The position numbers were made by a program, and so were the translations under genes. This document shows positions 15,367 through 49,169 of a stretch of 54,654 nucleotides of DNA, piece by piece (position 1 is the first letter of the stretch; each line of letters starts with the position of its first letter). Source of the DNA: Gaiellaceae bacterium (GTDB taxonomy: Bacteria > Actinomycetota > Thermoleophilia > Gaiellales > Gaiellaceae); assembly GCA_035762825.1 (NCBI GenBank), contig DASUCI010000054.1, forward strand, positions 1 to 54,654. The letters run 5' to 3'. The notes below the pieces were generated by a model. That model ran no database searches. It worked only from the letters and a program-made list of their open reading frames with translations, and was not told where the DNA came from.

Positions 15367-15370
15367 GCGC

Positions 15371-27875: not shown

Positions 27876-28020
27876 CGGCCGATGTCCTCGTGACGCGCAG
27901 GCGAGCCGCAGTGAGTGTTCCGGGTTCGCTGAACTTCCCAGAGCAGTGTGTCGTCAGAGGATCGACCGGACCGGAGAGCGGGCAGGCCTCGTTGGCAGGC
28001 TTGACGGAAGGAGGAGGGTC

Positions 28021-29259: not shown

Positions 29260-29275
29260 CCCGTGGAGGCCGAAT

Positions 29276-30010
29276 CTGCTCCTCGAGGTTGACGCGGTCA
29301 CCAAACGCTTCGGCGGTCTGCCGGCCGTCGACGGCGTGACGTTCGCGATCGACGACGGCGACATCGTCGCCGTCGTCGGTCCGAACGGGGCCGGGAAGAG
29401 CACGCTCTTGAAGCTCATCGTCGGACTGGAGCGGCCGACTGCCGGCACCGTCCTGCTGGGCGGCGATCGGATCGACGGGCTCACCGCCCATCAGATCCGG
29501 CGCAAGGGAATCGCATTGGCCATGCAACGACCGCTTCCGTTCGGCTCGATGACGGTCCTCGAGAACGCCGTCGTGGGCGCCATGTTCGGCGTCGGGCACG
29601 GCGTCCTGAGCGAGCGGGAGGCGAGACGGCGGGCGACCGAGGCCTTGGCCGTCGTCGGACTGGAGGAGCGAGCCGGTCGGCCGGTGTCGAGCCTGAACCT
29701 CCACCAGCAGCGATTCCTCGAGATGGCGAAGGCGCTGGCGGGCGAACCGAAGGTGCTGCTGCTCGACGAGGTGATGGCGGGTCTCAACGAGGCGGAGCTG
29801 GCGCACTCCGTCGCCATCGTTCGAAGCGTCCGCGACACCCTCGGGACGGCGATCCTCTGGGTCGAGCACGTGATGAGTGCCGTGATTCAGCTCGCCGAAC
29901 GCGCGATCGTCCTGAACTTCGGTCAGGTCCTGGCGGACGGCGAGCCCGGCGTCGTCATGCGGGACCCCCAGGTAGTCGACGCGTACCTCGGTCAGGCTCG
30001 CGTTGCTTGA
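29276..30010 (+). CDS. ABC transporter ATP-binding protein (LivG-like)
   Basis: Walker A GPNGAGKST, LSGG-like region and Walker B LLLDEV. The conserved N-terminus LLLEVDAVTKRFGGLPAVDG lies upstream of the track start (GTG 29336). The only near-cognate start is CTG 29276, 6 nt after GGAGG. Confidence 0.7.
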   Translation: MLLEVDAVTKRFGGLPAVDGVTFAIDDGDIVAVVGPNGAGKSTLLKLIVGLERPTAGTVLLGGDRIDGLTAHQIRRKGIALAMQRPLPFGSMTVLENAVVGAMFGVGHGVLSEREARRRATEALAVVGLEERAGRPVSSLNLHQQRFLEMAKALAGEPKVLLLDEVMAGLNEAELAHSVAIVRSVRDTLGTAILWVEHVMSAVIQLAERAIVLNFGQVLADGEPGVVMRDPQVVDAYLGQARVA

Positions 30011-30701
30011 GGTCGCCGGGCTGGCAGCCGGGTATCTCGGCGAGCGGGTCATCGACGGCATCGACATCGAAGTTCGGACGGGTGAGGCGGTCGTGGTCTT
30101 CGGCTCGAACGGCGCGGGAAAGACCACGCTCTTCCGGGCCATTGCCGGGCTCCTCCCGCGAATGGCGGGTCGCGTGGTCCTCGACGGCAAGGACCTGACG
30201 CGTAGTCCCGCCCACCGCATCTCACGCACGGGGATCGCGTACGTCCCGGCGGAACGGCACCTGTTCCCGGCGATGACCGTGAAGTCCAACCTGGTACTGG
30301 GCGCGTATCCCCGCCGTGCCGACCGGGACACGCTGGCGCTGGTGTACGACCTCTTCCCGCGGTTGCGGGAGCGGCACCGCCAGCATGCGGGAACCCTGAG
30401 CGGCGGGGAGCAGCAGATGCTTGCCGTGGGTCGTGCGCTCATGGCGAAGCCCAGGTTGCTCATGCTCGACGAGCCCACGACCGGACTGGCGCCGAAGATC
30501 GCGCAGGCCGCGTTCGAGGCACTCGCGGGTCTCAAGGAAGGGGGGATGACCCTGCTCATCGCGGAGCAGCAAGTGCCCCTGGCTCTCTCGGTGGCAGACC
30601 GCGGCTATGTGCTCGAGAACGGCCGGATCCGACTCGAAGGAACCTCCGACCAGCTAGCGCACAACCCTGAGGTCCGACGCGCCTACCTCGGCGTCGCATG
30701 A
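30003..30701 (+). CDS. ABC transporter ATP-binding protein (LivF-like)
   Basis: GSNGAGKTT, LSGGEQQML, LLMLDEP. TTG start at 30003. Confidence 0.85.
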   Translation: MLEVAGLAAGYLGERVIDGIDIEVRTGEAVVVFGSNGAGKTTLFRAIAGLLPRMAGRVVLDGKDLTRSPAHRISRTGIAYVPAERHLFPAMTVKSNLVLGAYPRRADRDTLALVYDLFPRLRERHRQHAGTLSGGEQQMLAVGRALMAKPRLLMLDEPTTGLAPKIAQAAFEALAGLKEGGMTLLIAEQQVPLALSVADRGYVLENGRIRLEGTSDQLAHNPEVRRAYLGVA

Positions 30702-31549
30702 AGGCGGTCGTCCTCGATGGGATCGTGCTCGGCCTGGCCTTCGGACTGCTCGGAGTCGGGATGACGCTCGTCTACGGGCTCGGCGGTGTCATCAACCTCG
30801 CGTACGGCCAGATCGTGATCGCCGCCGCGATCGTCGCCTCATTGGTCATCGAGAGAGGTGAGTCCCAGGCAGTGGCGGCTGGCGTCGGCGTGCTGGCCGC
30901 AGTCGGCCTTAGCGTCCTGCTGGATCTCACCTTGATGCGTCCTGTCTATCGCCAGCACGGCGAAGAGCGGACGCTCTTAGGCCTCCTACTGACGCTCGGT
31001 GCGGCGTTCGTCATCGGGGGCCTCCTCGCCTGGCGCTATCCCGCCGGCGCGTTGTACATCTACGTCGGCGGGGACCCGATCTCGGTCATCGGCGTCCCGA
31101 TGTCCGTGGGCAGCATCTGGGCCTCGGCCATCGCGCTCGTCGTGGCGGCGGTCCTCCTCGTGTTCTTCGGCGCCACCACCTTCGGGCGCGGCGTCCGCTC
31201 CGTGATCCAGGACGAGACGGGCGCGAGGCTCGTCGGCATCAACCCGTCGTTCGTCCGCACGGTCATCTTCGCGCTGAGCGGCGCGCTCGCCGGCGTGGTC
31301 GCCATCGCGCAGTCCATGACCGGGCCGCTGACGGTCAATGCGGGCTTCGAGCTCACGACGTTCGCGCTGATCGTGACCGTCGTCGGAGGCCTCGGGAGTG
31401 TCGCGGGAGCGTTCCTCGCGGGCGTGCTTCTGGGCGTGGTGAACGCGCTGAGCGCCCACTACATCGGGCAGTACATCACCACCATCGTCCTCCTCGGTGC
31501 AGCTGCCCTGACGATCCTCATCCGACCTCGAGGGCTGCTCGGCCGATGA
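30698..31549 (+). CDS. branched-chain-type ABC permease (LivH-like)
   Basis: 283 aa with 8 predicted TM segments (GLGGVINLAYGQ). The start overlaps the upstream stop. Confidence 0.8.
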   Translation: MKAVVLDGIVLGLAFGLLGVGMTLVYGLGGVINLAYGQIVIAAAIVASLVIERGESQAVAAGVGVLAAVGLSVLLDLTLMRPVYRQHGEERTLLGLLLTLGAAFVIGGLLAWRYPAGALYIYVGGDPISVIGVPMSVGSIWASAIALVVAAVLLVFFGATTFGRGVRSVIQDETGARLVGINPSFVRTVIFALSGALAGVVAIAQSMTGPLTVNAGFELTTFALIVTVVGGLGSVAGAFLAGVLLGVVNALSAHYIGQYITTIVLLGAAALTILIRPRGLLGR

Positions 31550-32574
31550 CCGAGACGCGGACGGCGGGCGGCTCGCGGCGGCTCGGGAGTATGGGCTGGG
31601 CGTTCCTGCCCATCGTCGTCACGGCGGCGTTCCTCGCCGTCCTTCCGCCCGTCTGGTTCGGTGACTCGCCGTACACGACGTCGTTGGCCGTCCAGGCGCT
31701 CGTGTTCGCCTCGTACGGCGTGGGCTTCAACCTCATCTTCGGGAGCACGAACCAGCTCTTCCTCTGCGTCGGCGCCCTGGCCGGAGTCGGCGGCTACGGC
31801 GCGGGCATCCTCGCGAACGAAAGCTCGCTACCGATGGCGGCGGGCGTGGCCGTGGGAACGGCGAGCGCGGCGATCGTGGGCGGTCTGCTGAGCTGGATCG
31901 CGGTGCGGCGGTCGCTCGGGATCATCTTCACCGGCATCGTCACGCTCGTCTTCTCGCTCGGGTTCGCGAACCTGCTGCTCGGCCAGCGCGACCTGACGGG
32001 ATCCGAGACGGGTCTCATCGTGGACGGGGTCCCCGCCGAGCTGGCTGACGACAGCGTCGGCGGCTACTACCTCTTCGCGGGTCTCCTCGTCGCGTTCCTG
32101 ATCGTCTTCCGGGCTCTCCAGCTGTCGCACGTCGGCTGGGCGTTCCGCGCCTTGCGCGACGACGAGGTGGCCGCGGAGCTGGCGGGCGTGAACGTCTCCC
32201 GCTACCGGATCTATGCGGCGACCGTGGGCTCGGCGATGATCGGCCTCACCGGCGCTCTCCTCGCCTACAGTGCGGGCTTCATCAGCCCGGCGACGTACAG
32301 CTTCGACCGCGTGGACGTGCGCGTTCTCGTGATGGTCGCGTTCGGAGGTCTCGGTACCCTGCTCGGCCCGGTCATCGGCGCGGGAGTGTTCGCGATCCTG
32401 GACGAGCAGCTGACGGCCAGCCTCGAGCTGCGCGAGGTCCTGTACGGCGCGTTCGTCATCACGATCTTCCTGTTCTTCAGGCGCGGTGTCGTACAGGCGT
32501 TCGTCTCATTCTTCGACCGCTTTGTCCGCTCTGGCCGACGCACCCAGCCAAACGTGCAATCGTCACGAGAGTAG
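31546..32574 (+). CDS. branched-chain-type ABC permease (LivM-like)
   Basis: 342 aa and multi-TM (GFNLIFGSTNQLFLCVGALAGVGGY). The start overlaps the upstream stop. Confidence 0.8.
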   Translation: MTETRTAGGSRRLGSMGWAFLPIVVTAAFLAVLPPVWFGDSPYTTSLAVQALVFASYGVGFNLIFGSTNQLFLCVGALAGVGGYGAGILANESSLPMAAGVAVGTASAAIVGGLLSWIAVRRSLGIIFTGIVTLVFSLGFANLLLGQRDLTGSETGLIVDGVPAELADDSVGGYYLFAGLLVAFLIVFRALQLSHVGWAFRALRDDEVAAELAGVNVSRYRIYAATVGSAMIGLTGALLAYSAGFISPATYSFDRVDVRVLVMVAFGGLGTLLGPVIGAGVFAILDEQLTASLELREVLYGAFVITIFLFFRRGVVQAFVSFFDRFVRSGRRTQPNVQSSRE

Positions 32575-34344: not shown

Positions 34345-35739
34345 TCAGCTCACTGCGGCCTCCGTGCGCCACCCCTCGTGGTACGAGCTGCGTGCGACCT
34401 CGGAGTACGGGCAGGGGCTCACGATGGCGCGGATCTCCACCTGTCGGTGGCGCTCGACCACCGGCTTCGAGGACCCGCCGTCCTCCTCGCCCCAGACGAG
34501 AGTCAGCTCGGCGCCGATCTCCACGTCCACGTCGACCATCGCGAGCGAGAGGTACGAGCGCTCGTTGTAGCTGTACCCGGAGAACGTCGAGACGCCGACC
34601 GGCTCGCCGTCTCGGAGCACCTTGTCGTACGGCCACGTGGAGTAGTTCGAGAGCGGGATGTCGATGTACTTCGCGGGATCCCCCTTCTCGAAGAGCGAGC
34701 CCATGGCGTGCGCGACGTCCTCGCCGTTCCACGCGAGCGTGACCTTCTTCCGGCGCGGCCGGTCGGCCATCTCGAGGAGCGCCTCCCGCCCGACGAAGTC
34801 GTGGTCGAACTTCACGAACGGCCAGTACCCGAGGTCGTGCGGAGTGAGGTAGTAGTCCTCGATGTCGTCGGAGACGAAGCTGCCTCCGAGTGAGCCCGTA
34901 CCCTCGTACCCGTCGGCCGGCAGCCACTCGCGGTAGGCCCTCAGCTCCTCGCCGGTGAAGACGGCCGGGAGCGGGCACGGGATCCACCCCGACTCGAGCG
35001 TGTTGGTCGCGTACACGCGTGAGCCGACCTGGCGCAGCCCGAAGTCCCTGCCGGCCTCGACGATCGCGCCTCTCACGTCCTCACGCTCGGCCCATGGGCC
35101 CCAGAGCTCGAGCCCGGGCACGCCCGACATCCCGTGATGGAGCGCGCGCACCTTCCGCCCGCCGATCGTGAGCTCGCCCATGTTGAAGAACTTGATCTCG
35201 GGGAGGGGCCCGCCGTTCGCTCTCTCCAGCACCTGCATCGCCGTCGGCCCCTGGACCTGGAAGCGGAAGAGCTCGCGCCCGCCCGTCGGGTTGACTGCGG
35301 TTCGCTCGTCCCTCGAGACCTGCACGTCGTAGCCGCCCGTCTCAGCGTGGTACTGCACCCAGTTGTGCGCGGAGGGGCGTCCCACGAGCCGCGCCGTGTG
35401 GTCGTCCAGGTGGAAGAGGATCGCGTCTCCGATGACGTAGCCGTCGGGGTTGCACACGACGAGCTGCTTAGCCTTGTTCACCGCGAAGTTCTCGAAGGTG
35501 TTGACGCCGACATTGGAGAGGAGCTCGATCGTGCCCGGGCCCTCGATCTGGAGGTCCAGCATGTGGTGCGACTGGTCGAAGAGCGCGGACGTCTCACGCC
35601 AGGCCACCTGTTCGTCCCGCCAGTTCGAGAACTCGCTCGGCACCGCCGGGTAGACGTAGGGCCCTATCTGCGAGTTGCGCGCCATCTCCACGGCGCTGCC
35701 AACGGCCTGGAGCTTCTCGTCGAGGTTTCCATACGCCAT
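34345..35739 (-). CDS. tetrahydrofolate-dependent aryl O-demethylase, LigM/DesA-like (GcvT aminomethyltransferase fold)
   Basis: 464 aa, collinear from memory with Sphingobium LigM: VEMARNSQIGPYVYP..PSEFSNWRDEQ.AWR, FRFQVQGP, NTLESGWIPCPLPAVFTGEELRAYREWLPA, FVKFDHDFVGREAL, RKKVTLAWNGEDV, VSPCPYS. Confidence 0.85.
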   Translation of the reverse strand: MAYGNLDEKLQAVGSAVEMARNSQIGPYVYPAVPSEFSNWRDEQVAWRETSALFDQSHHMLDLQIEGPGTIELLSNVGVNTFENFAVNKAKQLVVCNPDGYVIGDAILFHLDDHTARLVGRPSAHNWVQYHAETGGYDVQVSRDERTAVNPTGGRELFRFQVQGPTAMQVLERANGGPLPEIKFFNMGELTIGGRKVRALHHGMSGVPGLELWGPWAEREDVRGAIVEAGRDFGLRQVGSRVYATNTLESGWIPCPLPAVFTGEELRAYREWLPADGYEGTGSLGGSFVSDDIEDYYLTPHDLGYWPFVKFDHDFVGREALLEMADRPRRKKVTLAWNGEDVAHAMGSLFEKGDPAKYIDIPLSNYSTWPYDKVLRDGEPVGVSTFSGYSYNERSYLSLAMVDVDVEIGAELTLVWGEEDGGSSKPVVERHRQVEIRAIVSPCPYSEVARSSYHEGWRTEAAVS

Positions 35740-35781: not shown

Positions 35782-37350
35782 TTATGAGCCGTCCGGTCCG
35801 CCCGCGGTTCCCTGCTCGCCGCGGGCGAGGTGGTCACGACCGAGGAACGTGTTCGCCCAGGCGCTTGTGCCCTGCAGCGCGTTGTCCTTGACGACGACGG
35901 GGCCGTCCAGCATCGACTCCTCCTCGCCGTAGGCCTTCAGTCGCTCGTACGCGTCCGACCAGATGCACTCCGTGTCGTACACCTCGCACAGCCCGTCGCG
36001 CGTCCCGCCGCACGGGCCGTTGCGCTGATTCTTCGCGCACTGCGACTCGGGGCAGACGTATGCGATCTCGGGAAGCGAGCAGTCGCCGCAGTCCTTGCAT
36101 CCGAACAGCGGCACCTTGGCGGTCTGCTCGAGGGCGTGGGCCACCCGGCGAACCGTCTTCGGGGCCTTGTCGATTCCGCTGTAGACACGCCGTCCGGTCT
36201 CGAACAGCGGGGCGTCGCGCGCGAACACCGTGCCGTGCAGGCGACGGCTGAGCCGGTACTTGACGGGAACGCGCAGCTCGGTCCGCCGCCGCCGCTTCGA
36301 CTCGAGGTACGCGGCGTTCACGGCGTCGGTCGAGAGGCCCGTCTCGGGGTCGCGCTCGAAGAAGTGGAACTCCTGGGGGCGCGCGAACTGGACCTCGCGT
36401 GCGAGGTCGCGCCAGTCGCCGGGGGCGAAGGCGTCGGCGCGGTCGATGATCTCGGCGAACGTCTCCGCAGGCATGTGGCCGCCGAGGTAGACGCCGTCGA
36501 AGCCGAGGCCGCGCACGACCGCGAGATGCTTCGAGGCGAGGTCGACGAAGAAGGCGCGGCCCTGGTCCGGGCTGGCGCCGTGCCGCTCCGCGAGCGCGAG
36601 CAGCTCGTCGGACACGAGGATGCCGGGGATGATCCCGCGGTGAAACGCGCGCGCGGCCGTGCGAGAGAGCAGATAGACGTTCCCGACGACGTGCAGGTCC
36701 AGGTCTTCGCGGCGGATCCAGCGGAGGAGCTCGTCGTCCTTGCGCGTGTTCCAGCCTGCCTGGTTGATGACGAAGCGCGCACCTGCGCGGACCTTCTTGC
36801 GCAGCTTGAAGTACTGGGGCATCACCTCGCGCTCGAGCAGCTTGTGGTTCGTGACGACGCAGCCGAGGAAGAAGTCGGTCCGCTCGAGAGGCGTCTCCGG
36901 CGTGCGCGTGTCGGGCAGACCGGCATTCATCTCCGAGAAGAGGCTGATGAGCCCCACCGAGTCGATGTCGAAGACGGGGGCCGCGAGACCTCGATGACCC
37001 ATCACCGGGTAGTCGCCCGACATCGCGAGCACGTTCTGGAAGCCCGCCGAGCTCAGCTGCCAGCCGCGGCTCTCGAGCGCGTTGCGATTCCAGTCCTTGC
37101 AGGCGAGGTGGATGATCACCTCCTGCCCGCGCGAGATGAGGTCGGTTCCGAGCGCGTCAGGCGAGAGCATCGCGTGCCCGCCGGGGTTGTCGGTGATCGA
37201 GAGGACGTCGATCCTCGGGTCGGCGGCGAGATCCCTCGCGAGAGCCAGCACCCGCGCCCCTCCTTCGGAGCTGATCGGGCCGCGGCTCGTGACGAGCTCC
37301 GCGGCCACGACGAAGCCGTCCGGCTGGGCGAGGGCGTCGCGGAAGCGCAC
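35782..37350 (-). CDS. metF: methylenetetrahydrofolate reductase fused to an MTHFR C-terminal (MetV-like, Cys-rich) domain
   Basis: 522 aa. The N-terminal ~300 aa form an MTHFR barrel (SITDNPGG..., LAMSGDYP). The C-terminus is Cys-rich (FGCKDCGDCSLPEIAYVCPESQCAKNQRNGPCGG...C), as in MetV. GTG 37350 lies 4 nt after the upstream stop. Confidence 0.75.
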   Translation of the reverse strand: MRFRDALAQPDGFVVAAELVTSRGPISSEGGARVLALARDLAADPRIDVLSITDNPGGHAMLSPDALGTDLISRGQEVIIHLACKDWNRNALESRGWQLSSAGFQNVLAMSGDYPVMGHRGLAAPVFDIDSVGLISLFSEMNAGLPDTRTPETPLERTDFFLGCVVTNHKLLEREVMPQYFKLRKKVRAGARFVINQAGWNTRKDDELLRWIRREDLDLHVVGNVYLLSRTAARAFHRGIIPGILVSDELLALAERHGASPDQGRAFFVDLASKHLAVVRGLGFDGVYLGGHMPAETFAEIIDRADAFAPGDWRDLAREVQFARPQEFHFFERDPETGLSTDAVNAAYLESKRRRRTELRVPVKYRLSRRLHGTVFARDAPLFETGRRVYSGIDKAPKTVRRVAHALEQTAKVPLFGCKDCGDCSLPEIAYVCPESQCAKNQRNGPCGGTRDGLCEVYDTECIWSDAYERLKAYGEEESMLDGPVVVKDNALQGTSAWANTFLGRDHLARGEQGTAGGPDGS

Positions 37351-37354: not shown

Positions 37355-38311
37355 TCAGCCCTCTCTGCCGACGTCGGGCGTTCCGTATGTGTGGAAGCTC
37401 TCGATCGTCTGCACGCCCCAGTACTGGCCCCGCGCGCGCTCTGCGGGGGTCCACGTGATGGGCTCGAAGTCCGGGTCGTACACGAAGTAGCCCCCGGTCG
37501 TGACCTCGATCCGGTTGCCTCCGGGCTCGAAGCCGTACAGGAAGAACCCTTGCGCGACTCCGTGTTTCGACGGTGCCGCTTCGATCGGGACGTCCGCGTC
37601 GACGAAGAGGTCCGCGGCCCGCAGGCACTCCTCGCGCGTGTCGACCCAGAAGGCGAGGTGGTGGAGCCGTCCCGTCGCGCCGTGGGCGTCCGCGACGTAG
37701 ATGAGCTCGTGCGCCGCGATCGTGAGGCTCATCCAGGCACCGGTCTCGGTTCCGTCGTCGAGCTCGATCCGCTCGTACAGGCGGTAACCGAGCACGTTCC
37801 TTGCGAACGTGCTGTTCGCGCGGACATCGGCCGCCAGCAGGTTCACGTGGTCGAGCCGCTTGACCGCCGCTCCCCTGCCGAGGTAGCGCTGTGGCTGATT
37901 CCTCCAGGACGGCCGCAGGTGCTTGGGCGGCTCGTAGCGCTCGGCCTCGTAATAGAGCTCGAAGACGTGGCCGTCGGGGTCCGTGAAGCGGTATGCCCGG
38001 CCGTGGCCTACGTCTCCTTCGATCCATCCGAGCCCGAGCCCCGTCGCCTCGACGGCCGCGACCCGGCGGTCGAGCGCCTCGGGGCTCCATGCCCGCAGCG
38101 CGACGTGCCCGAGCCCCGCCTGCGACGACTCCGTGAGCTTCAGGCTGTAGCGGAGGTAGTCGCCCCAGCCCCGGAGGAAGACGGACTGCCCGTCGCGGGC
38201 CTCTTCCTCCATGCCGAGCACGTCGGCGAAGAAGCGGAGGCTCGCCTCGGGCTTCGGGGTGAGGAGCTCCGCATGGCCGATCCGGGCGAGATCGTGGATC
38301 GGCTCGCTCAT
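37355..38311 (-). CDS. type I (VOC, two-domain, XylE-like) extradiol ring-cleavage dioxygenase
   Basis: 318 aa. Candidate 2-His-1-carboxylate ligands lie in RLDHVNL, RLHHLAFW and FEPGGNRIEV, spaced as in catechol 2,3-dioxygenases. ATG overlaps the upstream stop (ATGA). Confidence 0.8.
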   Translation of the reverse strand: MSEPIHDLARIGHAELLTPKPEASLRFFADVLGMEEEARDGQSVFLRGWGDYLRYSLKLTESSQAGLGHVALRAWSPEALDRRVAAVEATGLGLGWIEGDVGHGRAYRFTDPDGHVFELYYEAERYEPPKHLRPSWRNQPQRYLGRGAAVKRLDHVNLLAADVRANSTFARNVLGYRLYERIELDDGTETGAWMSLTIAAHELIYVADAHGATGRLHHLAFWVDTREECLRAADLFVDADVPIEAAPSKHGVAQGFFLYGFEPGGNRIEVTTGGYFVYDPDFEPITWTPAERARGQYWGVQTIESFHTYGTPDVGREG

Positions 38312-38925
38312 TGCTCGACGAGCTGCCGCAGGCCGTCGAGGTCGTACGAGCGCTCGCCGGCCTCGAGCTTCGCTCGCTTCTCGCGCTCGCGCGCCTCGCG
38401 CGCGAGGCCAGCCTTCAGAACCTCGTCGATCCGCTCCCGCTCGACGACGACTGCTCCGTCCGCGTCGAGCACGACCACGTCTCCCTGACGGATCGTCGCC
38501 CCGGCGACCTCGACGGGCTCGCCGATCACGCCCGGAGCCTGCTTCTCGGCTCCGGTGACGCGGACGTACCGCGCCCAGATCGGCAACCCGACAGCTCGGA
38601 GCTCGTCGAGGTCGCGCACCGCAGCGTCCACGAGCAGCGCCGCGAGGCCTGCGACCTTCGCCTGCGTCGCAAGCAGCTCGCCGACGAGTGCGACCGGCCT
38701 CGGCTCGGGCATCGTGAGGACGAGCACCTCGCCAGGCTCCGCCTCGGCCACGGCCGCGTGGACCATGAGGTTGTCGTCCTGGCCGCAGCGCACGGTCCGC
38801 GCCGCGCCGGCCGCACGCGAGCCCGGCACGACCTGGAGCAGCGGCACGTCGACGACGCGGGCGCGGCCCGCCGCCTCGTGCACCGTGGCGGTTCCCAGCC
38901 GGGCGAGCTCGGTGAATTCCGTCAC
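38308..38925 (-). CDS. RraA-fold class II aldolase, LigK/GalC-like (4-carboxy-4-hydroxy-2-oxoadipate aldolase / oxaloacetate decarboxylase)
   Basis: 205 aa (TATVHEAAG..., DDNLMVHAAV..AEPGEVLVL, GELLATQAKVAGLAALLVDAAVRD...GLPIWAR, GDVVVLDADGAVVV). GTG 38925 overlaps the upstream stop (GTGA). Confidence 0.7.
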   Translation of the reverse strand: MTEFTELARLGTATVHEAAGRARVVDVPLLQVVPGSRAAGAARTVRCGQDDNLMVHAAVAEAEPGEVLVLTMPEPRPVALVGELLATQAKVAGLAALLVDAAVRDLDELRAVGLPIWARYVRVTGAEKQAPGVIGEPVEVAGATIRQGDVVVLDADGAVVVERERIDEVLKAGLAREAREREKRAKLEAGERSYDLDGLRQLVEQ

Positions 38926-39635
38926 AGGGCGCTCACCACCTGCGGCGTGACGCGCTGGAACGCCTCGGCGTGGCGAATCGCCGCGTTCCCCGACGAGCGC
39001 CGGGCGTGGTTGGCGCGCTGCTCGGCGCGCTGCGAGTAGTACGTGTGGAGGTACGACTGCGCCTTCATCTCCGCCATCGCGGCGTTCTTCTGCTCGATCA
39101 CCGGCGTGATGTCCACGAAGGTCGTGGGCACGAAGTTGCACAGCTCGGGCTGGTGCGGCTCGAAGAGCAGCAGCTCCGGCGGCTCGACCGTCTCGAACGC
39201 GCTCGGGACGCCCGCGCCGGCGGCGAGTGCGCGAGCCTTCTCGACGGCGAAGAACGCGGCTGCGTGGTCCGGGTTGAACGGGTCGCGATCGGTGTGTGTG
39301 AGGACCACGTCGGGAGCGAACGCGCGGATCCCGTCGGCGATCGCACCGAGTGCTTCGCTGTCGACCTCGAGAGGGTAGTCCCCGAGATCGAGGCACTCGA
39401 ACTCGGCACCGAGCGCCGCAGCCGCCCGCTCCGCCTCGCCGTGGCGGATCTCCTTCACGCGCTCGACGGTCTGTCCCTCCTTCTTCCAGAGCTCGCCGGA
39501 CTCCCCGCGCTCGCCGTAGGAGAGCGCGAGCACGCGCGCCGTGCCGCCGTTCGTCGTCGCGACTGCGATCGCGCCACCGGCCCGCCAGACGAAGTCGGCG
39601 GAGTGCGCGCCGATCACGAGGAGCTTGCGGCTCAC
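38922..39635 (-). CDS. PIG-L/LmbE family protein, GalB-like candidate 4-oxalomesaconate hydratase
   Basis: 237 aa (LLVIGAHSADFVWRAGGAIA, LSYGERGES, DPFNPDH, FEPHQPE). GTG 39635 overlaps the upstream stop (GTGA). Confidence 0.65.
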   Translation of the reverse strand: MSRKLLVIGAHSADFVWRAGGAIAVATTNGGTARVLALSYGERGESGELWKKEGQTVERVKEIRHGEAERAAAALGAEFECLDLGDYPLEVDSEALGAIADGIRAFAPDVVLTHTDRDPFNPDHAAAFFAVEKARALAAGAGVPSAFETVEPPELLLFEPHQPELCNFVPTTFVDITPVIEQKNAAMAEMKAQSYLHTYYSQRAEQRANHARRSSGNAAIRHAEAFQRVTPQVVSAL

Positions 39636-40558
39636 GAGGCACCGGCCAGGCGTCGCGACTGCCCCACGATCAGCTCGCGCACCTCGTCCTCGTCGAACCG
39701 TGCGCCGAGCAGGCGGTCGGCCCAGAGCGCGAGCCCGTCCTCGACCGGCGGATAGTCGGGGTTCCCGCAGTCGCTCGAGAAGAGCGAGTGCTCGACGCCG
39801 ACCGCGCGCACGCCGTCGAAGACGTGCTCCCACTCGGTCTTTCCGGACAGCGGCGTGCTGAGGCACCGCTCGAGCAGGCACCCGCGCTCCGCGAGAGTGC
39901 GTTGATCGTCGAGCGAGAAGTTCTGACAGGGGAACTCCGGGTGCGTGACGACGATGCGTGCCACGCCTTCCTCGAGCGCTGCGTCGACGACCGCGAAGGT
40001 GTCGTCGCGACCGAGGTGGCCCGTGGCGAGTACGAGGTCGTGGCGTGCGATCGCGCGCAGCACGTCACGCGCCTCGGGAAGAAGGCGCCCGTCGGGATCG
40101 GTGACGTGTACCGCGTCGATGCTGAGACCCAGGCCCCGCAGCTCGTGCTGGAGCTGGGCCCACTGCGGCACCTTGTCTCCGTCCCTCGGCTGGGTCCTCC
40201 CGGCCGTCTCCGCGGGGGAGTCGACCGTCGGCATCCAGACGATCGCGGCGCCCTCGCGCGCTGCGATCTCGACGGCGAGGGCATTCATGCCGCCGACGGC
40301 CCAGTTCAGCGTGAGCGTGCCGACCACCTGCACGTCGGCGACGAGACTCGAGACGACCTGCGCGCGCTCGGCGGTCGAGGTGTAGTGCGACTTCAGGGCA
40401 AAGCCCGCGAGCCCGAGCTCGGCGAAGCGCTGCGCGAGCGTGCGGTCGTCGATCCGTCGCCGGGGCACGTCCGGCGCGACGTGGACGTGCAGGTCGTAGG
40501 CGCCCTCCACGAGCACCCGGGCCCGTTCGCTCGGAGAGGTCGCGACGACCTGGGTCAC
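39632..40558 (-). CDS. amidohydrolase-superfamily-like TIM-barrel protein (DxHxH), function unassigned
   Basis: 308 aa with N-terminal YDLHVHVAPD, then KSHY, ATGH and SDCG as candidate metal-ligand positions. GTG 40558 overlaps the upstream stop (GTGA). Confidence 0.5.
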   Translation of the reverse strand: MTQVVATSPSERARVLVEGAYDLHVHVAPDVPRRRIDDRTLAQRFAELGLAGFALKSHYTSTAERAQVVSSLVADVQVVGTLTLNWAVGGMNALAVEIAAREGAAIVWMPTVDSPAETAGRTQPRDGDKVPQWAQLQHELRGLGLSIDAVHVTDPDGRLLPEARDVLRAIARHDLVLATGHLGRDDTFAVVDAALEEGVARIVVTHPEFPCQNFSLDDQRTLAERGCLLERCLSTPLSGKTEWEHVFDGVRAVGVEHSLFSSDCGNPDYPPVEDGLALWADRLLGARFDEDEVRELIVGQSRRLAGAS

Positions 40559-41352
40559 GATCGCACCCCGCGTCCGTGCGAAGCGAGCTCGGCCAGCTGC
40601 GCGGCGCTGGCGGATGCGATGCGCGGCTCGACTCCGAGCTCGACCAGCAGGTCGCGCGCGGCTTCCATCTCGTCGACGCGACGCGCGGCGTGCGTCCGGC
40701 TACCCTCGAGTGCCCGCTCGAGATACGGCCGGCCGATCATTCCGGCGATCTCCTTCGCGAGCCAGTCCGCGTGGCCCGCGATCTCCGCCGCCTGCATGCT
40801 CTCGACCACGGCGGCGGCGAGCCCCTTCATGAACACCGAGCGCACCAGCTTGAGCGCAGCTGCGTCCCCGGCGTGCTCCGAGAGCACCTCGACGGGCATC
40901 CCGAGGGGCTCGAACAGCCCGGCGAACGCCGCCGCACCCGGCCCCGACGCGAGCACGGGAGCGCGCAGCCCGTGCTGCGGGAGCGGCCCGAGGAGGGCGA
41001 CGTCGACGAACGGCAGCGCAGCCTCCCCGACGAGCGCCGCGAGCTCGCGCTTCAGGTCCGGCGAGGCGGTGTTCAGGTCCGCGTAGATCGTCGACGCCGA
41101 GAGCACGGGGAGGACTTGGGCCGCCGCGTCGAGCGCGGCCCGCGCGCCGTTCACGCTCAACACGACGTCGCTGCCGGCTGCTGCCGAGCCGGCATCGGAA
41201 GCCCTCAAGATCGACGGGACGTCACGGTCGGGATCGGGGTCGTAGCCGCGCACCTCCACACCGGCGGCGGCGAGGTCGGCCGCGAGGCGGCTCCCGGCCT
41301 CACCGAGACCGAGCACCGCGACGGCCCGTGCGCTTCGATCCACGGCTGACAT
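40555..41352 (-). CDS. NAD(P)-dependent dehydrogenase, 6-phosphogluconate-dehydrogenase-type Rossmann domain with DUF1932-like C-terminus
   Basis: 265 aa starting MSAVDRSARAVAVLGLGEAGSRLAADL (GxGxxG). The C-terminal helical domain is (KLVRSVFMKGLAA). The upstream 327 aa of ORF 40555..42333 are shadow sequence antisense to the GntR and ligM-like genes. Confidence 0.6.
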   Translation of the reverse strand: MSAVDRSARAVAVLGLGEAGSRLAADLAAAGVEVRGYDPDPDRDVPSILRASDAGSAAAGSDVVLSVNGARAALDAAAQVLPVLSASTIYADLNTASPDLKRELAALVGEAALPFVDVALLGPLPQHGLRAPVLASGPGAAAFAGLFEPLGMPVEVLSEHAGDAAALKLVRSVFMKGLAAAVVESMQAAEIAGHADWLAKEIAGMIGRPYLERALEGSRTHAARRVDEMEAARDLLVELGVEPRIASASAAQLAELASHGRGVRS

Positions 41353-41406: not shown

Positions 41407-42069
41407 ATGGCCGTCACCTCGAGCTACGACGCCCTCCGCGCGGCCATCGTCCGCGGCGACATCGCGCCCGACGCGCGCCTCGTCGAAGCCGACCTCTCGA
41501 CGACGTTCGCGATGTCGCGCGGGGCCGTGCGCACCGCGCTCATCCGCCTCGAGCAGGACGGGCTCGTCGTCCGCGAGCCTCATCGGGGCGCACGCGTTCG
41601 GCGCGTCTCGGACGCCGAGGCGGTCGAGATCCTGCAAGCTCGCGCGGTTCTCGAAGGCCTCGCCGTCCGGCAGGCCGCCGACCGCATCGACCATGCGGGC
41701 GCCGCCCGTCTCCAGAGCTGCATCGCCCGTCAACGCGAGCTTCTCGAGAACGGCGACCTCCTCGGCGCGTCGGAGGTGAACGCCGAGCTGCACGCCACGC
41801 TGCTCGAGCTCTCCGGCCACGCGACCGCTATGCGTCTCATCGAGAGCCTGAACGCCCAGACGGTCCGCTACCAGTACCGCACGATCCTCATCCCGGGGCG
41901 TCCGGGCGCGTCCGTGGCTGAGCACGCTGCGATCGTCGAGGCGGTGACCGCCGGGAACGAGGACGAGGCGGAGCTGGCGATGCGGAGACATCTCCTCAAC
42001 GTCGCCGAGGCAGTGCGGGGTGGACGGCTGCCGGGCGGTATCGACAATGCGAGCCGCGGTGTCCTCTAG
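41407..42069 (+). CDS. GntR family transcriptional regulator (FadR/FCD subfamily)
   Basis: wHTH (EADLSTTFAMSRGAVRTALIRLEQDGLV) plus an FCD domain (NAELHATLLEL...EHAAIVEAV). Confidence 0.85.
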   Translation: MAVTSSYDALRAAIVRGDIAPDARLVEADLSTTFAMSRGAVRTALIRLEQDGLVVREPHRGARVRRVSDAEAVEILQARAVLEGLAVRQAADRIDHAGAARLQSCIARQRELLENGDLLGASEVNAELHATLLELSGHATAMRLIESLNAQTVRYQYRTILIPGRPGASVAEHAAIVEAVTAGNEDEAELAMRRHLLNVAEAVRGGRLPGGIDNASRGVL

Positions 42070-43473: not shown

Positions 43474-44292
43474 CTACCAGAGCTCGAGGCGGCCGTCCTT
43501 GAGGACGGCGGTGCCCTCTGGGTTGACCGACTCGAAACCGAATCCAGCGTCGACGTTCCAGACGCGCGTCGTGACGGTCTCGCCGGGGAAGAGCGGTGCG
43601 GAGAAGCGCACGGCGATGCGCTTCACCGCTCGCGGATTCGCGACGCCCGCCGCCCGGAGAACGGCCCTCCCCGCGAACGCCATGGTGCAAAGCCCGTGCA
43701 CGATCCGTCCGGGGAGCCCGACCCCGTGGGCGAACTCGTCGTCGAGGTGGATCGCGAAGTCGTCTCCCGAAGCCGCCGCGTAGCGGGCGGTCTGATCCTC
43801 CGCGACGAGGTACGTGATCTCGGCGACCGGGTCGCCGTCCGCCTCGAGTCGGTGGTCGGGCGCTCGCTCGCCGACTCCGTCGCCTGCCTGCACGCCGCGG
43901 AAGAACTCCGTCACGTACTGCTCGTTCACGAGCTCGCCGCTCTCATCCCGCGTCTCCGTCTTGATGACGAGCGACGTCCCGTTCGGGCGCGGGAGCAGGG
44001 CGACCGGTGTCGCACGCGATACGACCTGCATGCCGGCCTCGAGCGGCCGGTGGAGCAGCATGTCCTGCTCGTAGTGCACCACGAAGCGGCGAATATCGCC
44101 GGACGCGACCGCCTCGGACGCAGGCGCGATCGCGCTCCGTACCGGAACGATCGCGAAGACCGGCCCTCCGGCGACGTCGTCCGTCGCCTCCGCGTACGCT
44201 TGCATCGCCGCGTCGGTGACCTCGTACGGGTAGTCGTCCCCGGCGCCTCCGATCGCAGCCACGTCGAAGGTCAGGGCACTCGTCTCGGGCAC
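43474..44292 (-). CDS. double hot-dog MaoC-like (R)-specific enoyl-CoA hydratase
   Basis: 272 aa from GVG 44292 region start VPETSALTF (GTG 44292). There is an N-terminal hot-dog domain and a C-terminal MaoC motif (YAAASGDDFAIHLDDEFAHGVGLPGRIVHG). The upstream 88 aa of the ORF lie in low-GC intergenic DNA. Confidence 0.75.
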   Translation of the reverse strand: MPETSALTFDVAAIGGAGDDYPYEVTDAAMQAYAEATDDVAGGPVFAIVPVRSAIAPASEAVASGDIRRFVVHYEQDMLLHRPLEAGMQVVSRATPVALLPRPNGTSLVIKTETRDESGELVNEQYVTEFFRGVQAGDGVGERAPDHRLEADGDPVAEITYLVAEDQTARYAAASGDDFAIHLDDEFAHGVGLPGRIVHGLCTMAFAGRAVLRAAGVANPRAVKRIAVRFSAPLFPGETVTTRVWNVDAGFGFESVNPEGTAVLKDGRLELW

Positions 44293-44296
44293 GCGT

Positions 44297-44311
44297 TTCA
44301 GGCTACCTGAT
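44297..44311. promoter_or_regulatory. operator palindrome TTCAGG-N3-CCTGAT (site 1)
   Basis: TTCAGGCTACCTGAT lies 5 nt upstream of the MaoC-like GTG, in the divergent region shared with the SBP gene. Confidence 0.6.
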
Positions 44312-44345
44312 AACCGGCAAAAGGTTTCAGCCTCTGGACAGTAGT

Positions 44346-44360
44346 TACAGGTTCCCTTAA
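44346..44360. promoter_or_regulatory. degenerate second operator copy (site 1b)
   Basis: TACAGGTTCCCTTAA matches 10 of the 12 half-site positions, in the same intergenic region. Confidence 0.35.
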
Positions 44361-44412
44361 ACTCGACCTCGTTGAGGCGACGCTGTCTCATCGATACCGA
44401 AGGGAGCCCTTC

Positions 44413-45594
44413 ATGAGCAGGAGGCAGATCGGTGTCGTCGTGGCTGCCGGTGCCGCGGTTCTCGCCCTCGTTCTCGTACCGGCGTCCGCGACGAGCCCCT
44501 CGCAGGCAGGCGCCATCTACTTCGGCATGGACGCGCCGCTGACCGGGCCCACGCAACTCGTCGGCCAGAGCGACCGGCAGGCCGTCGAAGCAGTGGTCGC
44601 GTACTGGAACTCACGCGGCGGCATCAGAGGTAGGCGAGTCGTCGTGGACGTTCTCGACAACTCATCCAACCCGTCGCAGGCCGTACAGAACGTCCAGAAG
44701 TTCATCAGCGACGCCAAGTACGTCGGCATCTTCGGCTCGGGTAACGCGGCCGCGGCCGTGGCGACCGGGGCGATCGCGAGCCAGGCGAGGATCCCGTTCA
44801 TCGCACTCTCGCCGCCGACGACGCTCGTCGAGCCGCCGCAGCCGTACGCCTACATCCTCACGGCGACGGCCCGCCTCTACGCATACAGCGAGGCGGCGTA
44901 CCTGAAGAGCATCGGCGTCAGGCGTGTCTGGCTGATGGGTGACAACGGCGGCTACGGCCGCGACGGGCCGAACCAGGTCTCGAAGCTCGCCCGGAAGTAC
45001 AACCTCGAGATCGTCGACACGACGATCTTCTCGCCCGCGTCGACGGACTTCTCCGCCGAGCTGACGAGGATCAAGAACTCCAATGCGCAGGCGCTCTGGC
45101 TCTGGACCGCGACACCTGCGGGCCCGACGATCGTCAAGCAGTTCAAGCAGCTCCAGCTGTCGCAGAGGCTCGTGTTGACGGGCGCCAACGTCTCGCCGCA
45201 GTTCCTCCAGGGCACGTGCGGCGACGTGAACGGCGCGCTCGTAAACTCGTTCCTGGCGACCGCGTGGACGTTCCTCCCCAAGACGAATCCCGTGCGCAAG
45301 GAGGCCGCTCTGCTCCGAAGCATCCTCAAGCGGCCGGTCTCCAACTTCGACGGCGACGCTGCGGGCGCGCTCTGGGCGTACAAGGCGGCGATCGAGAGAG
45401 GCGGTGCGACGCGAGCGGGCATCAACGCCGCGCTGGAGACGAAGCTGCGCGGGCTCGTGACGCCCGCAGGGAAGATCTATCTCTCACGGACCAACCATCA
45501 GGGCCTTCAGCTGGACTCGATGTGGGTCGGGAGGATCCAGAACTGCCAGGTCAGGCCGCTCTTCGGCCCGGCCTTCGCGAAGAAGAAGAAGTAG
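44413..45594 (+). CDS. ABC transporter substrate-binding protein, LivK/Peripla_BP_6 type (second system)
   Basis: 393 aa with a signal peptide (VVVAAGAAVLALVLVPASA), then YFGMDAPLTGP...GGIRG. Confidence 0.8.
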   Translation: MSRRQIGVVVAAGAAVLALVLVPASATSPSQAGAIYFGMDAPLTGPTQLVGQSDRQAVEAVVAYWNSRGGIRGRRVVVDVLDNSSNPSQAVQNVQKFISDAKYVGIFGSGNAAAAVATGAIASQARIPFIALSPPTTLVEPPQPYAYILTATARLYAYSEAAYLKSIGVRRVWLMGDNGGYGRDGPNQVSKLARKYNLEIVDTTIFSPASTDFSAELTRIKNSNAQALWLWTATPAGPTIVKQFKQLQLSQRLVLTGANVSPQFLQGTCGDVNGALVNSFLATAWTFLPKTNPVRKEAALLRSILKRPVSNFDGDAAGALWAYKAAIERGGATRAGINAALETKLRGLVTPAGKIYLSRTNHQGLQLDSMWVGRIQNCQVRPLFGPAFAKKKK

Positions 45595-45643
45595 CGATCA
45601 TGCGAGCGCCGCAGACGCTCGTCGTCCGGCGGCAGCGGCGCTC

Positions 45644-47059
45644 GTGAATCTCGCCCACGTCCTCGCGGACGGCGCCGACCGGCATCCCGAGCGGACGGCG
45701 TTGCTGTTCGAGGGCGAGCGGATCTCGTACCGCGAGCTCGACCGTCGGGCGGCCGTTGCGGCCACTGCGCTGCGGGCGCAGGGCGTCGACGCCGACGACC
45801 GCGTCGCGATCAAGCTGCCGAACACGCCCGACTACGTGGCCGCGTACTTCGGCGTTCTCCGCCTCGGAGCGATCGCGGTGCCACTCAACGTCCTTCTGGC
45901 ACAGCCCGAGATCGACGCGCGGCTCGAGGCGGCGACGCCGAGGACGTTCGTCGATCGTCCGCTCACGAGGGATGGCGAGCCGCGCGTCGAGATCGCCGTA
46001 CGGGACGAGGACGATCCGGCTGCGCTCCTCTTCACCTCCGGCACGACCGACCGGCCGAAGGGCGCGATCCTGACACATGCCGGAATCCGCGCGTCCGCGC
46101 GCTTCGGCGTGGAGGCCCTCGGCTTCACCGCCGACGACGTGCTGCTCGGCGTCGCACCCTTCCCGCATGTACTCGGTCAGCAGGTGTTCGTCTGCGCGTT
46201 TCTCGTCGGGGGAGCCGTATCCGTGATGCAGCGCTTCGAGCCCGAGGCCGCGCTCGAGACGATGGCGAGCACGCGGACGACGGTCATGTTCGGCGTACCG
46301 ACGATGTGCATCGCGCTCTGCGAGGCAGCGCCGAGCGCGGAGGCGCTGCCGCCGCTGCGGATCGCGCATATCGGCGGGTCCGCGGTCCCCGTCGACGTCG
46401 TGCGACGGTTCGAGGAGACGTTCGCGGCGGCGGTCCACGAGGGCTACGGTCTTACCGAGATGAGCGGCCTGGCGACGACCTTCGCGCTCGGGCGGCGCCG
46501 CAAATCGGGCTCGGTCGGACAGCCGTCGAGTGGCACGGAGGTTCGGATCGCGAGCACGGACGAGCGGGGGGCCGGTGAGGTCCAGTTCCGCGGCCCCTCG
46601 GTCATCCGCGGCTACTGGAACGACCCGGAGGCCACGGCCGCGAGGCTCGACAGCGACGGCTGGCTCTCGACCGGCGACCTCGGCTACCTCGACGAGGACG
46701 GCGACCTCTTCCTCGTCGACCGCAAGAAGGAGCTGATCATCCGAGGCGGCTACAACGTCTATCCGCGCGAGGTCGAGGAGGTGCTGTACCAGCATCCCGC
46801 CGTCCTCGAGGTCGCGGTCGTGGGAGTGCCCCACGAGTCGCTCGGTGAAGAGGTTGCCGCGATCGTCGTCCCGCGGCCCGGTGCCAAGGTCGATCCTGAA
46901 GAGCTGACGGCGTGGGCGAAGGAACGCGTGGCGGCCTACAAGTACCCTCGGCATGTCGTACTCGTCGCGGAGCTCCCGAAGAGCCCGACGGGGAAGATCC
47001 TCAAGCGGAGCATCGATCTCGGCCCACTCCGGGAGGGACTGACCCGCGCCGCACCGTGA
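45644..47059 (+). CDS. AMP-dependent acyl-CoA ligase (candidate hydroxycinnamate:CoA ligase)
   Basis: 471 aa with the adenylate-forming motifs LLFTSGTTDRPKGA, GYGLTE, TGDLGYLDEDG and RKKELIIRGGYNVYP. GTG start. Confidence 0.8.
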   Translation: MNLAHVLADGADRHPERTALLFEGERISYRELDRRAAVAATALRAQGVDADDRVAIKLPNTPDYVAAYFGVLRLGAIAVPLNVLLAQPEIDARLEAATPRTFVDRPLTRDGEPRVEIAVRDEDDPAALLFTSGTTDRPKGAILTHAGIRASARFGVEALGFTADDVLLGVAPFPHVLGQQVFVCAFLVGGAVSVMQRFEPEAALETMASTRTTVMFGVPTMCIALCEAAPSAEALPPLRIAHIGGSAVPVDVVRRFEETFAAAVHEGYGLTEMSGLATTFALGRRRKSGSVGQPSSGTEVRIASTDERGAGEVQFRGPSVIRGYWNDPEATAARLDSDGWLSTGDLGYLDEDGDLFLVDRKKELIIRGGYNVYPREVEEVLYQHPAVLEVAVVGVPHESLGEEVAAIVVPRPGAKVDPEELTAWAKERVAAYKYPRHVVLVAELPKSPTGKILKRSIDLGPLREGLTRAAP

Positions 47060-47084
47060 GCTTCGCGCGTGAATCTCAGGGTGA

Positions 47085-47113
47085 TTGACAGGTAGCCTGA
47101 AATCTTCGATACT
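47085..47113 (+). promoter_or_regulatory. promoter with embedded operator (site 2)
   Basis: TTGACA (47085..47090), a 17-nt spacer, then GATACT (47108..47113). The spacer carries GACAGGTAGCCTGAA (47087..47101), the reverse complement of TTCAGGCTACCTGTC. Confidence 0.55.
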
Positions 47114-47178
47114 CCCTCGGTCATCTGCCGGCGCGGGCAGAGCGGCCGAAATGCCGGCACGAGCAGGGGAGGTCGATC

Positions 47179-49137: not shown

Positions 49138-49151
49138 AAGCTGCCACGTGT

Positions 49152-49166: not shown

Positions 49167-49169
49167 TCC

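Follow-up and report, generated by a model that had tools for sequence, protein, structure and literature searches.

A VOC-type extradiol dioxygenase gene linked to GalB-like and LigK-like genes in a Gaiellaceae bacterium, and its predicted role in gallate or protocatechuate cleavage

Background

Which enzyme opens the aromatic ring in a gene cluster that encodes a GalB-like hydratase and a LigK-like aldolase beside a type I extradiol dioxygenase? In known systems the place upstream of 4-oxalomesaconate hydratase and CHA aldolase (CHA, 4-carboxy-4-hydroxy-2-oxoadipate) belongs to LigAB, DesB/GalA or DesZ, all of them LigB-type (type II) enzymes. The question arises in a 54,654-nucleotide stretch of DNA from a Gaiellaceae bacterium (contig DASUCI010000054.1 of assembly GCA_035762825.1), called the window throughout, where a gene for a two-domain enzyme of the VOC superfamily lies within a tightly packed run of genes. 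An earlier note on this DNA had proposed that a type I enzyme was recruited here to a carboxylated or tri-hydroxylated ring, a specificity that it described as normally LigB-type. The latter statement agrees with AromaDeg, which assigns the dioxygenases for gallate, methylgallate and protocatechuate (4,5-cleaving) to the LigB superfamily and has neither gallate nor protocatechuate among its validated type I substrates (PMC4250580). The proposal itself, as a prediction from sequence, is supported by the gene linkage, the operon and the pocket alignment described below. Judging from genomic context, the enzyme is likely to be a functional analogue of LigAB, GalA and DesB on the type I fold, with gallate or 3-O-methylgallate as its substrate and perhaps also protocatechuate, the last being cut at the 4,5 position; it would then probably fill a role that, until now, only enzymes of an unrelated family have been known to fill.

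Domain architecture and relatives of the dioxygenase

At third codon positions the GC content of the dioxygenase reading frame is 0.91, a usual value for genuine genes in the window, whose overall GC is 69%. The product has two tandem VOC (beta-alpha-beta-beta-beta) domains, as type I extradiol dioxygenases do, which is seen from both Pfam and full-length alignments: the C-terminal half (residues 152-270) matches the Glyoxalase/VOC family PF00903 (E-value 4.6e-26), and the N-terminal half matches PF18029 (residues 18-119) and Diox-like_N, PF22247 (residues 69-122). The two-domain VOC architecture given in the earlier note for this 318-residue protein is thus borne out. Pfam did not find PF02900, the catalytic domain of LigB, on the protein. 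In fold and ancestry it is unrelated to LigAB, DesB/GalA and DesZ, and its likeness to them is one of predicted activity.

The protein aligns over its full length with the structures of 9wgj, AphC, XylE and the homoprotocatechuate dioxygenase HPCD. The nearest solved relative is Protein Data Bank (PDB) entry 9wgj (E-value 3e-122, 56% identity), followed by AphC of Rhodococcus (7q2a; E-value 2.6e-78, 42%) and, at a distance, XylE (1mpy; E-value 2.4e-41, about 29-30%). The label 'XylE-like' given earlier therefore stands as to the type I class, shared with XylE and the TIGR03211 family together with the superfamily and domain architecture, and falls as to any particular closeness, because 9wgj and AphC are nearer.

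AphC, a 4-alkylcatechol 2,3-dioxygenase (7q2a/3lm4; PMC9062432), is the nearest characterized homologue, and it shares both the metal-binding triad and the second-sphere His/His/Tyr residues. Automatic annotation and the source databases likewise name homologues of the window enzyme 'catechol 2,3-dioxygenase'. Both facts favor reading it as a normal 2,3-dioxygenase of catechol or alkylcatechols that lies near GalB and LigK without any functional connection. AphC differs in its partners: it works with a classical meta-cleavage pathway, while the window enzyme is accompanied by GalB and LigK.

The entry 9wgj is a recent, unpublished deposit of 323 residues named 'Catechol 1,2-dioxygenase', for which a text search turned up chance matches only and no paper, organism or function; the Foldseek copy of the PDB, which extends to April 2026, does not contain it. 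Its closest relatives among the loci described below, in Thermogemmatispora (74% identical) and Alicyclobacillus (69%), both lie in a cluster with DUF6282, GalB, LigK and DUF1932 genes. Searches of the open-access literature turned up no gallate or protocatechuate 4,5-dioxygenase of the VOC type, although prior knowledge is possible given this unpublished structure. The clade is common in soil metagenomes, where it forms thousands of clusters at 90% identity, mostly from Gaiellales and Solirubrobacterales.

Operon and neighboring genes

Seven minus-strand genes, in the order DUF1932, DUF6282, GalB, LigK, dioxygenase, MetF-like and LigM, are tightly packed with overlapping or near-abutting ends (Table 1). 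The stop codon of the aldolase gene and the start codon of the dioxygenase gene overlap as ATGA, which counts against a proximity without functional meaning. The two neighbors resemble the enzymes that the earlier note had named. The PIG-L family protein aligns over its full length with GalB of P. putida (5cgz; E-value 2.4e-57, residues 5-236 on 3-237), and the RraA-family protein does so with the CHA/HMG aldolase 3noj (E-value 3.4e-39), scoring below the cut-offs of NF006731 (166 against 179) and TIGR02798 (150 against 304.5). Compared with the gal cluster of P. putida (GalA, GalB, GalC and GalD), the window has a GalB equivalent and, adjacent to it, a candidate equivalent of GalC, while GalA is replaced by the type I enzyme, GalD is absent, and DUF6282 and DUF1932 genes are added; alphaproteobacterial versions of the cluster add a GalD-type tautomerase.

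The window also encodes a tetrahydrofolate-dependent O-demethylation set, with DesA and LigM at equivalog level and the MTHFR and DUF5981 domains present, in a setting like that of LigM, DesA and MetF in Sphingobium SYK-6. The MetF-like gene adjoins the dioxygenase gene in related loci too. The demethylases would make 3-O-methylgallate and gallate from syringate. A tblastn search of the window with two LigB-type queries (E-value at most 1e-3, as for all tblastn searches here) found no LigB-type dioxygenase, so that nothing else there could open the product of DesA, which leaves the type I dioxygenase as the sole candidate in the window for this ring-opening step.

Searches with XylG, XylF, XylJ, XylQ, XylK and XylI as queries found no xylG/J/Q/K/I homologues in the window, the sole match being the PcaD enol-lactonase, in line with the earlier claim that no xylGFJK-type lower meta-pathway genes neighbor the dioxygenase. 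An XylE-type locus (L085), in contrast, has partners of the xylGFJQKI type. The absence by tblastn of HMS dehydrogenase, HMS hydrolase, OEH, HOA aldolase and acetaldehyde dehydrogenase from the window is a further point against an ordinary catechol dioxygenase. Neither a GalD-type 4-oxalomesaconate tautomerase (GalD/LigU, PrpF family) nor a LigI orthologue was found in the window, and the DUF6282 and DUF1932 proteins fall outside the LigI and LigC families.

Conservation of the linkage in related genomes

Related loci were sampled from one genome per GTDB species with two peptide patterns for which the dioxygenase was the only source. This gave 80 loci at 54-93% identity, in which we counted neighbors within 10 kb of the dioxygenase homologue. 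The closest come from metagenome-assembled genomes of Gaiellaceae and other Thermoleophilia. PIG-L (GalB) and RraA (LigK) genes were both present in 61 of the 80 loci, and at least one of them in 64. A DUF6282 gene was present in 60 and a DUF1932 gene in 37; the LigM, DesA and MTHFR genes were almost confined to the Gaiellales-like group.

The linkage extends over four phyla. Its hosts include Gaiellaceae, Solirubrobacterales, Thermoleophilaceae, Conexibacteraceae and Microthrixaceae, and also Chloroflexia, Thermogemmatispora, Paenibacillus, Bacillus, Alicyclobacillus, Bradyrhizobium and other Alphaproteobacteria. There are at least four gene orders among the GalB/LigK-linked loci: the dioxygenase gene is last in Gaiellales, lies between DUF1932 and DUF6282 in some Solirubrobacterales, and comes first in Alicyclobacillus and Thermogemmatispora. 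Because the linkage of dioxygenase, GalB and LigK survives such rearrangement, it is good evidence of functional coupling, and this too is difficult to reconcile with a chance neighborhood.

Several of these clusters are smaller than that of the window or differ from it in informative ways. In Bacillus sp. USDA818B3_A a GntR gene is followed by genes for an MFS transporter, the dioxygenase, GalB, LigK and a RidA-like protein, with no dehydrogenase or hydrolase. The Agrobacterium pAt cluster consists of PIG-L, dioxygenase, ligK, 4-oxalomesaconate tautomerase and a hydrolase of the tannase/feruloyl-esterase family, and in Thioclava DUF1932 is followed by PIG-L, dioxygenase, LigK and tautomerase; a GalD-type tautomerase is also present in the Rhizobium version. 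The combination of PIG-L, dioxygenase, ligK and tautomerase is borne on alphaproteobacterial plasmids. In Methylobacterium, DUF1932 adjoins the dioxygenase gene, followed by an MFS gene and a true LigJ (2gwg, E-value 3e-189), with ligK nearby. Roseomonas has a true LigI gene (4d8l, E-value 4e-76) overlapping DUF1932 by 4 nucleotides, together with LigAB-type, VanAB-type and type I dioxygenase genes, and Paenibacillus naphthalenovorans carries a TctBAC tricarboxylate-type transporter within the cluster.

Two fusions of RraA and dioxygenase, P0001 (525 residues) and P0002 (503 residues), were considered as Rosetta-stone evidence and neither was counted. P0001, the one inspected, holds frameshifted low-complexity stretches in its RraA half, and its fusion probably arose through an error in assembly or gene calling. 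A fused PIG-L-RraA gene call of 489 residues occurs in a related locus (L002, 8535-10004).

Active site and substrate pocket

The motifs RLDHVNL (residues 152-158), RLHHLAFW (215-222) and FEPGGNRIEV (261-270), in which the earlier note had placed a His/His/Glu triad, do contain one. AphC has the metal ligands His155, His217 and Glu268 and the catalytic residues His200, His249 and Tyr258 (PMC9062432). Alignment with it identifies the ligands of the window enzyme as His155, His218 and Glu269, where His218 is the second histidine of the HH pair and Glu269 is the glutamate of RIEV, not that of FEPGG. The triad of MndD (His155/His214/Glu267) aligns with the same residues, and none of 86 homologues departs from them. 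In the second sphere the enzyme also has His201, His250 and Tyr259, equivalents of His200, His248 and Tyr257 in HPCD. The metal is expected to be Fe(II), or possibly Mn(II).

Residue 201 (codon 37709-37711) varies within the clade. The histidine is kept in the Actinomycetota branch, which includes the window protein, and a tyrosine takes the place of this catalytic residue in 9wgj and in a branch of Bacillota, Chloroflexota and Alphaproteobacteria (L062, L063, L066, L074-L084 and L086). A natural His-to-Tyr change at the position of His200 in HPCD and AphC is unusual for type I extradiol dioxygenases.

The substrate pocket was compared by alignment to AphC and MndD alone. In AphC the 4-alkyl pocket consists of Trp192, Met205, Ile251, Leu296, Leu303 and Phe309 (PMC9062432), for which the window enzyme has Trp193, Val206, Val252, Gln296, Ile303 and His307. 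Leu296 and Phe309 are thus replaced by Gln296 and His307, and in addition Ile292 and Thr294 of AphC correspond to Arg292 and Arg294. The replacement of hydrophobic residues by Gln, His and Arg argues against an alkylcatechol substrate, and the pattern of Arg292, Arg294, Gln296 and His307 fits an anion-binding pocket. The loop that bears the arginines aligns with the Arg292-Arg293 loop of MndD and HPCD, which we take to help bind the carboxylate of homoprotocatechuate; in HPCD the residues in question would be Arg293 and Arg243.

The same residues follow the gene linkage. The GalB/LigK-linked clade conserves Arg292, Arg/Lys294, Gln296, Trp298 and His307, with Leu or His at position 294 in a few loci, and 9wgj has the same Arg/Arg/Gln/His signature as the window enzyme. 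Four divergent homologues without Gln296 (L072, L087, L076 and L078) are all without GalB and LigK; an HOA aldolase gene lies near two of them (L072 and L087), L078 has a cupin and FAA-hydrolase setting, and for L076 the neighbors come from the marker scan only.

The DUF6282 and DUF1932 proteins

A search of the PDB found no sequence relative of the DUF6282 protein. In its AF2 model (pLDDT 79) the chain forms a TIM barrel of the amidohydrolase type, for which Foldseek matched dipeptidases, dihydroorotases and PTE-like lactonases at TM scores of 0.55-0.6, and the conserved residues are an HxH motif, His58, His181, His206 and Asp263. A partial, C-terminal hhalign match to the LigI/LigJ family (Amidohydro_2; 93.6% probability over 107 columns) reflects superfamily membership and nothing more specific. 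DUF6282 and GalD never occur together among the 80 loci, where GalD is present in only three. From this context the DUF6282 protein could be a hydrolase of 2-pyrone-4,6-dicarboxylate (PDC), of CHMOD or of a methyl ester, or a substitute for 4-oxalomesaconate tautomerase.

The repeated position of DUF1932 beside the dioxygenase gene, as in Methylobacterium, and its overlap with LigI in Roseomonas suggest a LigC-like role, as a candidate 4-carboxy-2-hydroxymuconate semialdehyde (CHMS) dehydrogenase, and hence a semialdehyde intermediate derived from protocatechuate. Searches of the open-access literature on DUF6282 and DUF1932 returned nothing relevant.

Four Gaiellales-like loci (L013, L016, L019 and L020) have DUF6282 directly upstream of the dioxygenase gene and LigM downstream, with MTHFR in three of the four, and both GalB and LigK are missing from the surrounding 10 kb; the pairing of the dioxygenase with DUF6282 seems tighter than its link to the hydratase and aldolase. 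In locus L002 a gene for a PurU-like formyl-tetrahydrofolate deformylase (ACT and Formyl_trans_N domains; 5941-6804) stands directly upstream of DUF1932, which fits a recycling of C1-tetrahydrofolate tied to O-demethylation.

Proposed pathway

In the pathway that we propose, DesA and LigM would move the methyl groups of syringate and vanillate onto tetrahydrofolate, with the MetF-like enzyme recycling the cofactor, and the products would be 3-O-methylgallate, gallate and protocatechuate. The vicinal hydroxyls of these compounds would bind the metal held by His155, His218 and Glu269, while the ring carboxylate would sit in the polar, basic pocket of Arg292, Arg294, Gln296 and His307, and the ring would be cut on the side away from the carboxylate. 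Gallate would then give 4-oxalomesaconate directly, 3-O-methylgallate would give a methyl ester and from it PDC, and protocatechuate would give CHMS. The DUF1932 dehydrogenase and the DUF6282 protein might convert the PDC or methyl-ester and semialdehyde products to 4-oxalomesaconate, which GalB would hydrate and the LigK-like aldolase would split, after hydration, into pyruvate and oxaloacetate.

The data do not separate gallate and 3-O-methylgallate from protocatechuate, and both could be substrates, as they are for LigAB. Activity on gallate or 3-O-methylgallate, predicted without excluding protocatechuate, has a somewhat better than even chance in our judgment, being favored by the DesA gene opposite the operon, by the protocatechuate 3,4-dioxygenase genes (PcaHG) nearby, by the minimal Bacillus cluster and by the tautomerase and tannase-family genes of Agrobacterium. 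Activity on protocatechuate, likewise not exclusive of the others, is about an even bet, and is favored by the conserved DUF1932 dehydrogenase. More tentatively, soil Thermoleophilia, Chloroflexota, Bacillota and some Alphaproteobacteria may all run a version of gallate/protocatechuate-4,5 meta-cleavage that has gone undescribed, with a VOC dioxygenase in place of LigAB/GalA/DesB, DUF1932 in place of LigC, and DUF6282 in place of LigI or of GalD/LigU.

If the proposal is true, a capacity for mineralizing monomers of syringyl lignin and tannin has been missed, or misnamed as 'catechol 2,3-dioxygenase'. The enzyme would be a single-subunit, structurally tractable VOC protein for lignin-valorization routes to PDC or 4-oxalomesaconate, and a natural case of how type I enzymes set the position of cleavage. 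Two domains of unknown function, DUF6282 and DUF1932, would also receive their first functions, which are testable.

Alternative explanations

A number of observations weigh against the proposed activity. Characterized type I enzymes of the XylE, HPCD and AphC types typically cleave 4-substituted catechols next to the substituent; formation of 4-oxalomesaconate or CHMS needs a cut on the far side, so the substrate would have to bind in a different orientation. The protein passes the 'catechol 2,3-dioxygenase' equivalog TIGR03211 of NCBIfam, at 330.6 bits against a cut-off of 320.2, a margin of only 10 bits. A complete protocatechuate 3,4-cleavage set about 10 kb from the operon would make a protocatechuate role redundant in this genome, and a role on gallate only leaves the widely conserved DUF1932 dehydrogenase without explanation. 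Sixteen of the 80 loci have neither PIG-L nor RraA within 10 kb, some of them on contigs that are short or end near the gene, and in two loci (L060 and L061) the enzyme is paired instead with an HpaB-type hydroxylase. In Alicyclobacillus sacchari DSM 17974 (L074, 2670-9773) the dioxygenase gene comes immediately after a lower meta-pathway set of the classical kind. Finally, the AF2 model of the dioxygenase, built on a shallow alignment, was unusable for the pocket (pLDDT 47.5, Foldseek TM about 0.25); of the structural check that the earlier note had recommended, the model thus failed, and the alignment supplied the basic residues, Arg292 and Arg/Lys294.

The Alicyclobacillus set is Pra-like: it encodes a LigB-type dioxygenase, an aldehyde dehydrogenase, two proteins of the FAA-hydrolase family, acetaldehyde dehydrogenase, HOA aldolase and an Amidohydro_2 protein, and resembles a protocatechuate 2,3-cleavage pathway beside a GalB/LigK module.

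The alternative that survives best is a narrower form of our own proposal, in which the enzyme is a strict gallate dioxygenase, an analogue of DesB/GalA, and the DUF1932 and DUF6282 proteins have roles apart from CHMS and PDC, with DUF6282 for example replacing GalD. The Bacillus cluster, which does without dehydrogenase and hydrolase, agrees with it, as do the tautomerase and tannase-family esterase of Agrobacterium, a tannase homologue near a Chloroflexia locus (L062), the PcaHG route that already serves protocatechuate in the window, and the lack of any locus with both DUF6282 and GalD. The tannase family also includes feruloyl esterases, however, which makes the Agrobacterium gene weak evidence for gallate, and GalD was present in only three loci. 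Against it also stands the retention of DUF1932 beside the dioxygenase in many lineages, with the 4-nucleotide overlap in Roseomonas with a true PDC hydrolase gene pointing to a semialdehyde. We regard strict gallate specificity as unlikely, if still worth considering.

It is distinctly improbable that the enzyme cleaves a carboxylated catechol outside the 4-oxalomesaconate funnel, acting for example on protocatechuate at the 2,3 position (PraA-like), on homoprotocatechuate or on another acid such as 2,3-dihydroxybenzoate, with GalB and LigK belonging to a different, co-regulated branch. The usual proximal cleavage by type I enzymes is in its favor, together with the alignment of the arginine loop with that of homoprotocatechuate dioxygenase and the HpaB-type hydroxylase of L060 and L061. 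The window, however, has no decarboxylase, isomerase or lower meta-pathway for such products, the score of the enzyme against the HpaD model of NCBIfam (212) is far under the cut-off of 321, and in the minimal clusters of Bacillus, Agrobacterium and Thioclava the dioxygenase is the sole ring-opener beside GalB, LigK and tautomerase.

An ordinary catechol or alkylcatechol 2,3-dioxygenase is the least probable of the three and would be a considerable surprise, since to the evidence against it from the operon, the linkage and the pocket is added that the meta-pathway set of Alicyclobacillus sacchari, whose aldehyde dehydrogenase, hydratase, acetaldehyde dehydrogenase and HOA aldolase genes along with the TIGR03211 score would otherwise support it, has a LigB-type dioxygenase of its own.

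Other genes in the window

The coordinates of the operon, of the catalytic codons and of the main flanking genes are collected in Table 1.

Table 1. Features of the dioxygenase locus, by position in the window
Position	Strand	Feature	Evidence or remark
21546-27755	-	Protocatechuate 3,4-cleavage/beta-ketoadipate set: PobA, PcaD, PcaB, PcaG, PcaH, PcaIJ-like CoA-transferase	NCBIfam
27946-32574	+	Liv-type ABC transporter (binding protein, two ATPases, two permeases)	Pfam
34345-35739	-	LigM-like tetrahydrofolate-dependent vanillate/3-O-methylgallate O-demethylase	NF047885, 665.9 against cut-off 580
35782-37350	-	MTHFR-like protein with DUF5981 C-terminal domain (MetF-like)	PF02219, PF12225
37355-38311	-	Type I (VOC) two-domain extradiol dioxygenase	ATG start, 318 residues
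37415-37441	-	Loop E291-R-A-R-G-Q-Y-W-G299, proposed carboxylate-binding part of pocket	AphC/MndD alignment
37505-37507	-	Glu269 codon, third metal ligand	Aligns with AphC Glu268, MndD Glu267
37658-37660	-	His218 codon, second metal ligand	Aligns with AphC His217
37847-37849	-	His155 codon, first metal ligand	Aligns with AphC His155
38308-38925	-	RraA-family LigK/GalC-like CHA aldolase	PF03737, E-value 1.8e-33
38922-39638	-	PIG-L family GalB-like 4-oxalomesaconate hydratase	PF02585; next upstream of aldolase gene
39632-40558	-	DUF6282 protein, amidohydrolase-superfamily TIM barrel	PF19799, E-value 7.6e-62
40555-41352	-	NAD_binding_2/DUF1932 oxidoreductase	Pfam; 3qsg, E-value 1e-25
41407-42069	+	GntR/FCD regulator, divergent from operon	PF00392, PF07729
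42020-43456	+	DesA-like tetrahydrofolate-dependent syringate O-demethylase, opposite operon	NF047633, 802.9 against cut-off 800

GntR-type genes are found with the cluster in loci of Bacillota and Chloroflexota as well. The true start of the DesA-like gene is probably some 10-18 codons downstream of 42020, as NF047633 aligns from residue 19. Members of the protocatechuate 3,4-cleavage set pass their equivalog cut-offs, with the exception of PobA and the CoA-transferase subunits. About a dozen related loci likewise have PcaHG genes no more than 10 kb from the dioxygenase cluster. The Liv-type transporter, whose membership in the cluster is uncertain, is possibly an uptake system for aromatic acids; such a transporter also flanks the dioxygenase cluster on Agrobacterium and Roseomonas plasmids.

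Beyond the DesA-like gene, the region 43474-52707 has genes for a hydratase of the MaoC type, a binding protein of the Liv type, an acyl-CoA ligase, a weakly matching alpha/beta hydrolase and a MarR regulator, together with those for a second ABC transporter of the Liv type. These genes could be for a CoA-dependent shortening of side chains, from hydroxycinnamate to benzoate, that feeds the demethylases. A 385-residue protein encoded on the minus strand at 52667-53824 belongs to Amidohydro_2 (PF04909), the broad family that also contains LigI, LigJ and LigW; its best PDB match is the uncharacterized 3irs (E-value 7.5e-23), it has no NCBIfam match, and an SDR gene (53533-54414) adjoins it. At the other end of the window, aromatic amino-acid biosynthesis is represented on the plus strand at 8550-14094 by a chorismate-binding enzyme, a class II DAHP synthase and a prephenate dehydrogenase with an ACT domain, and these genes are followed by a DUF1326 and PpoB2 copper-chaperone pair at 14566-16201.

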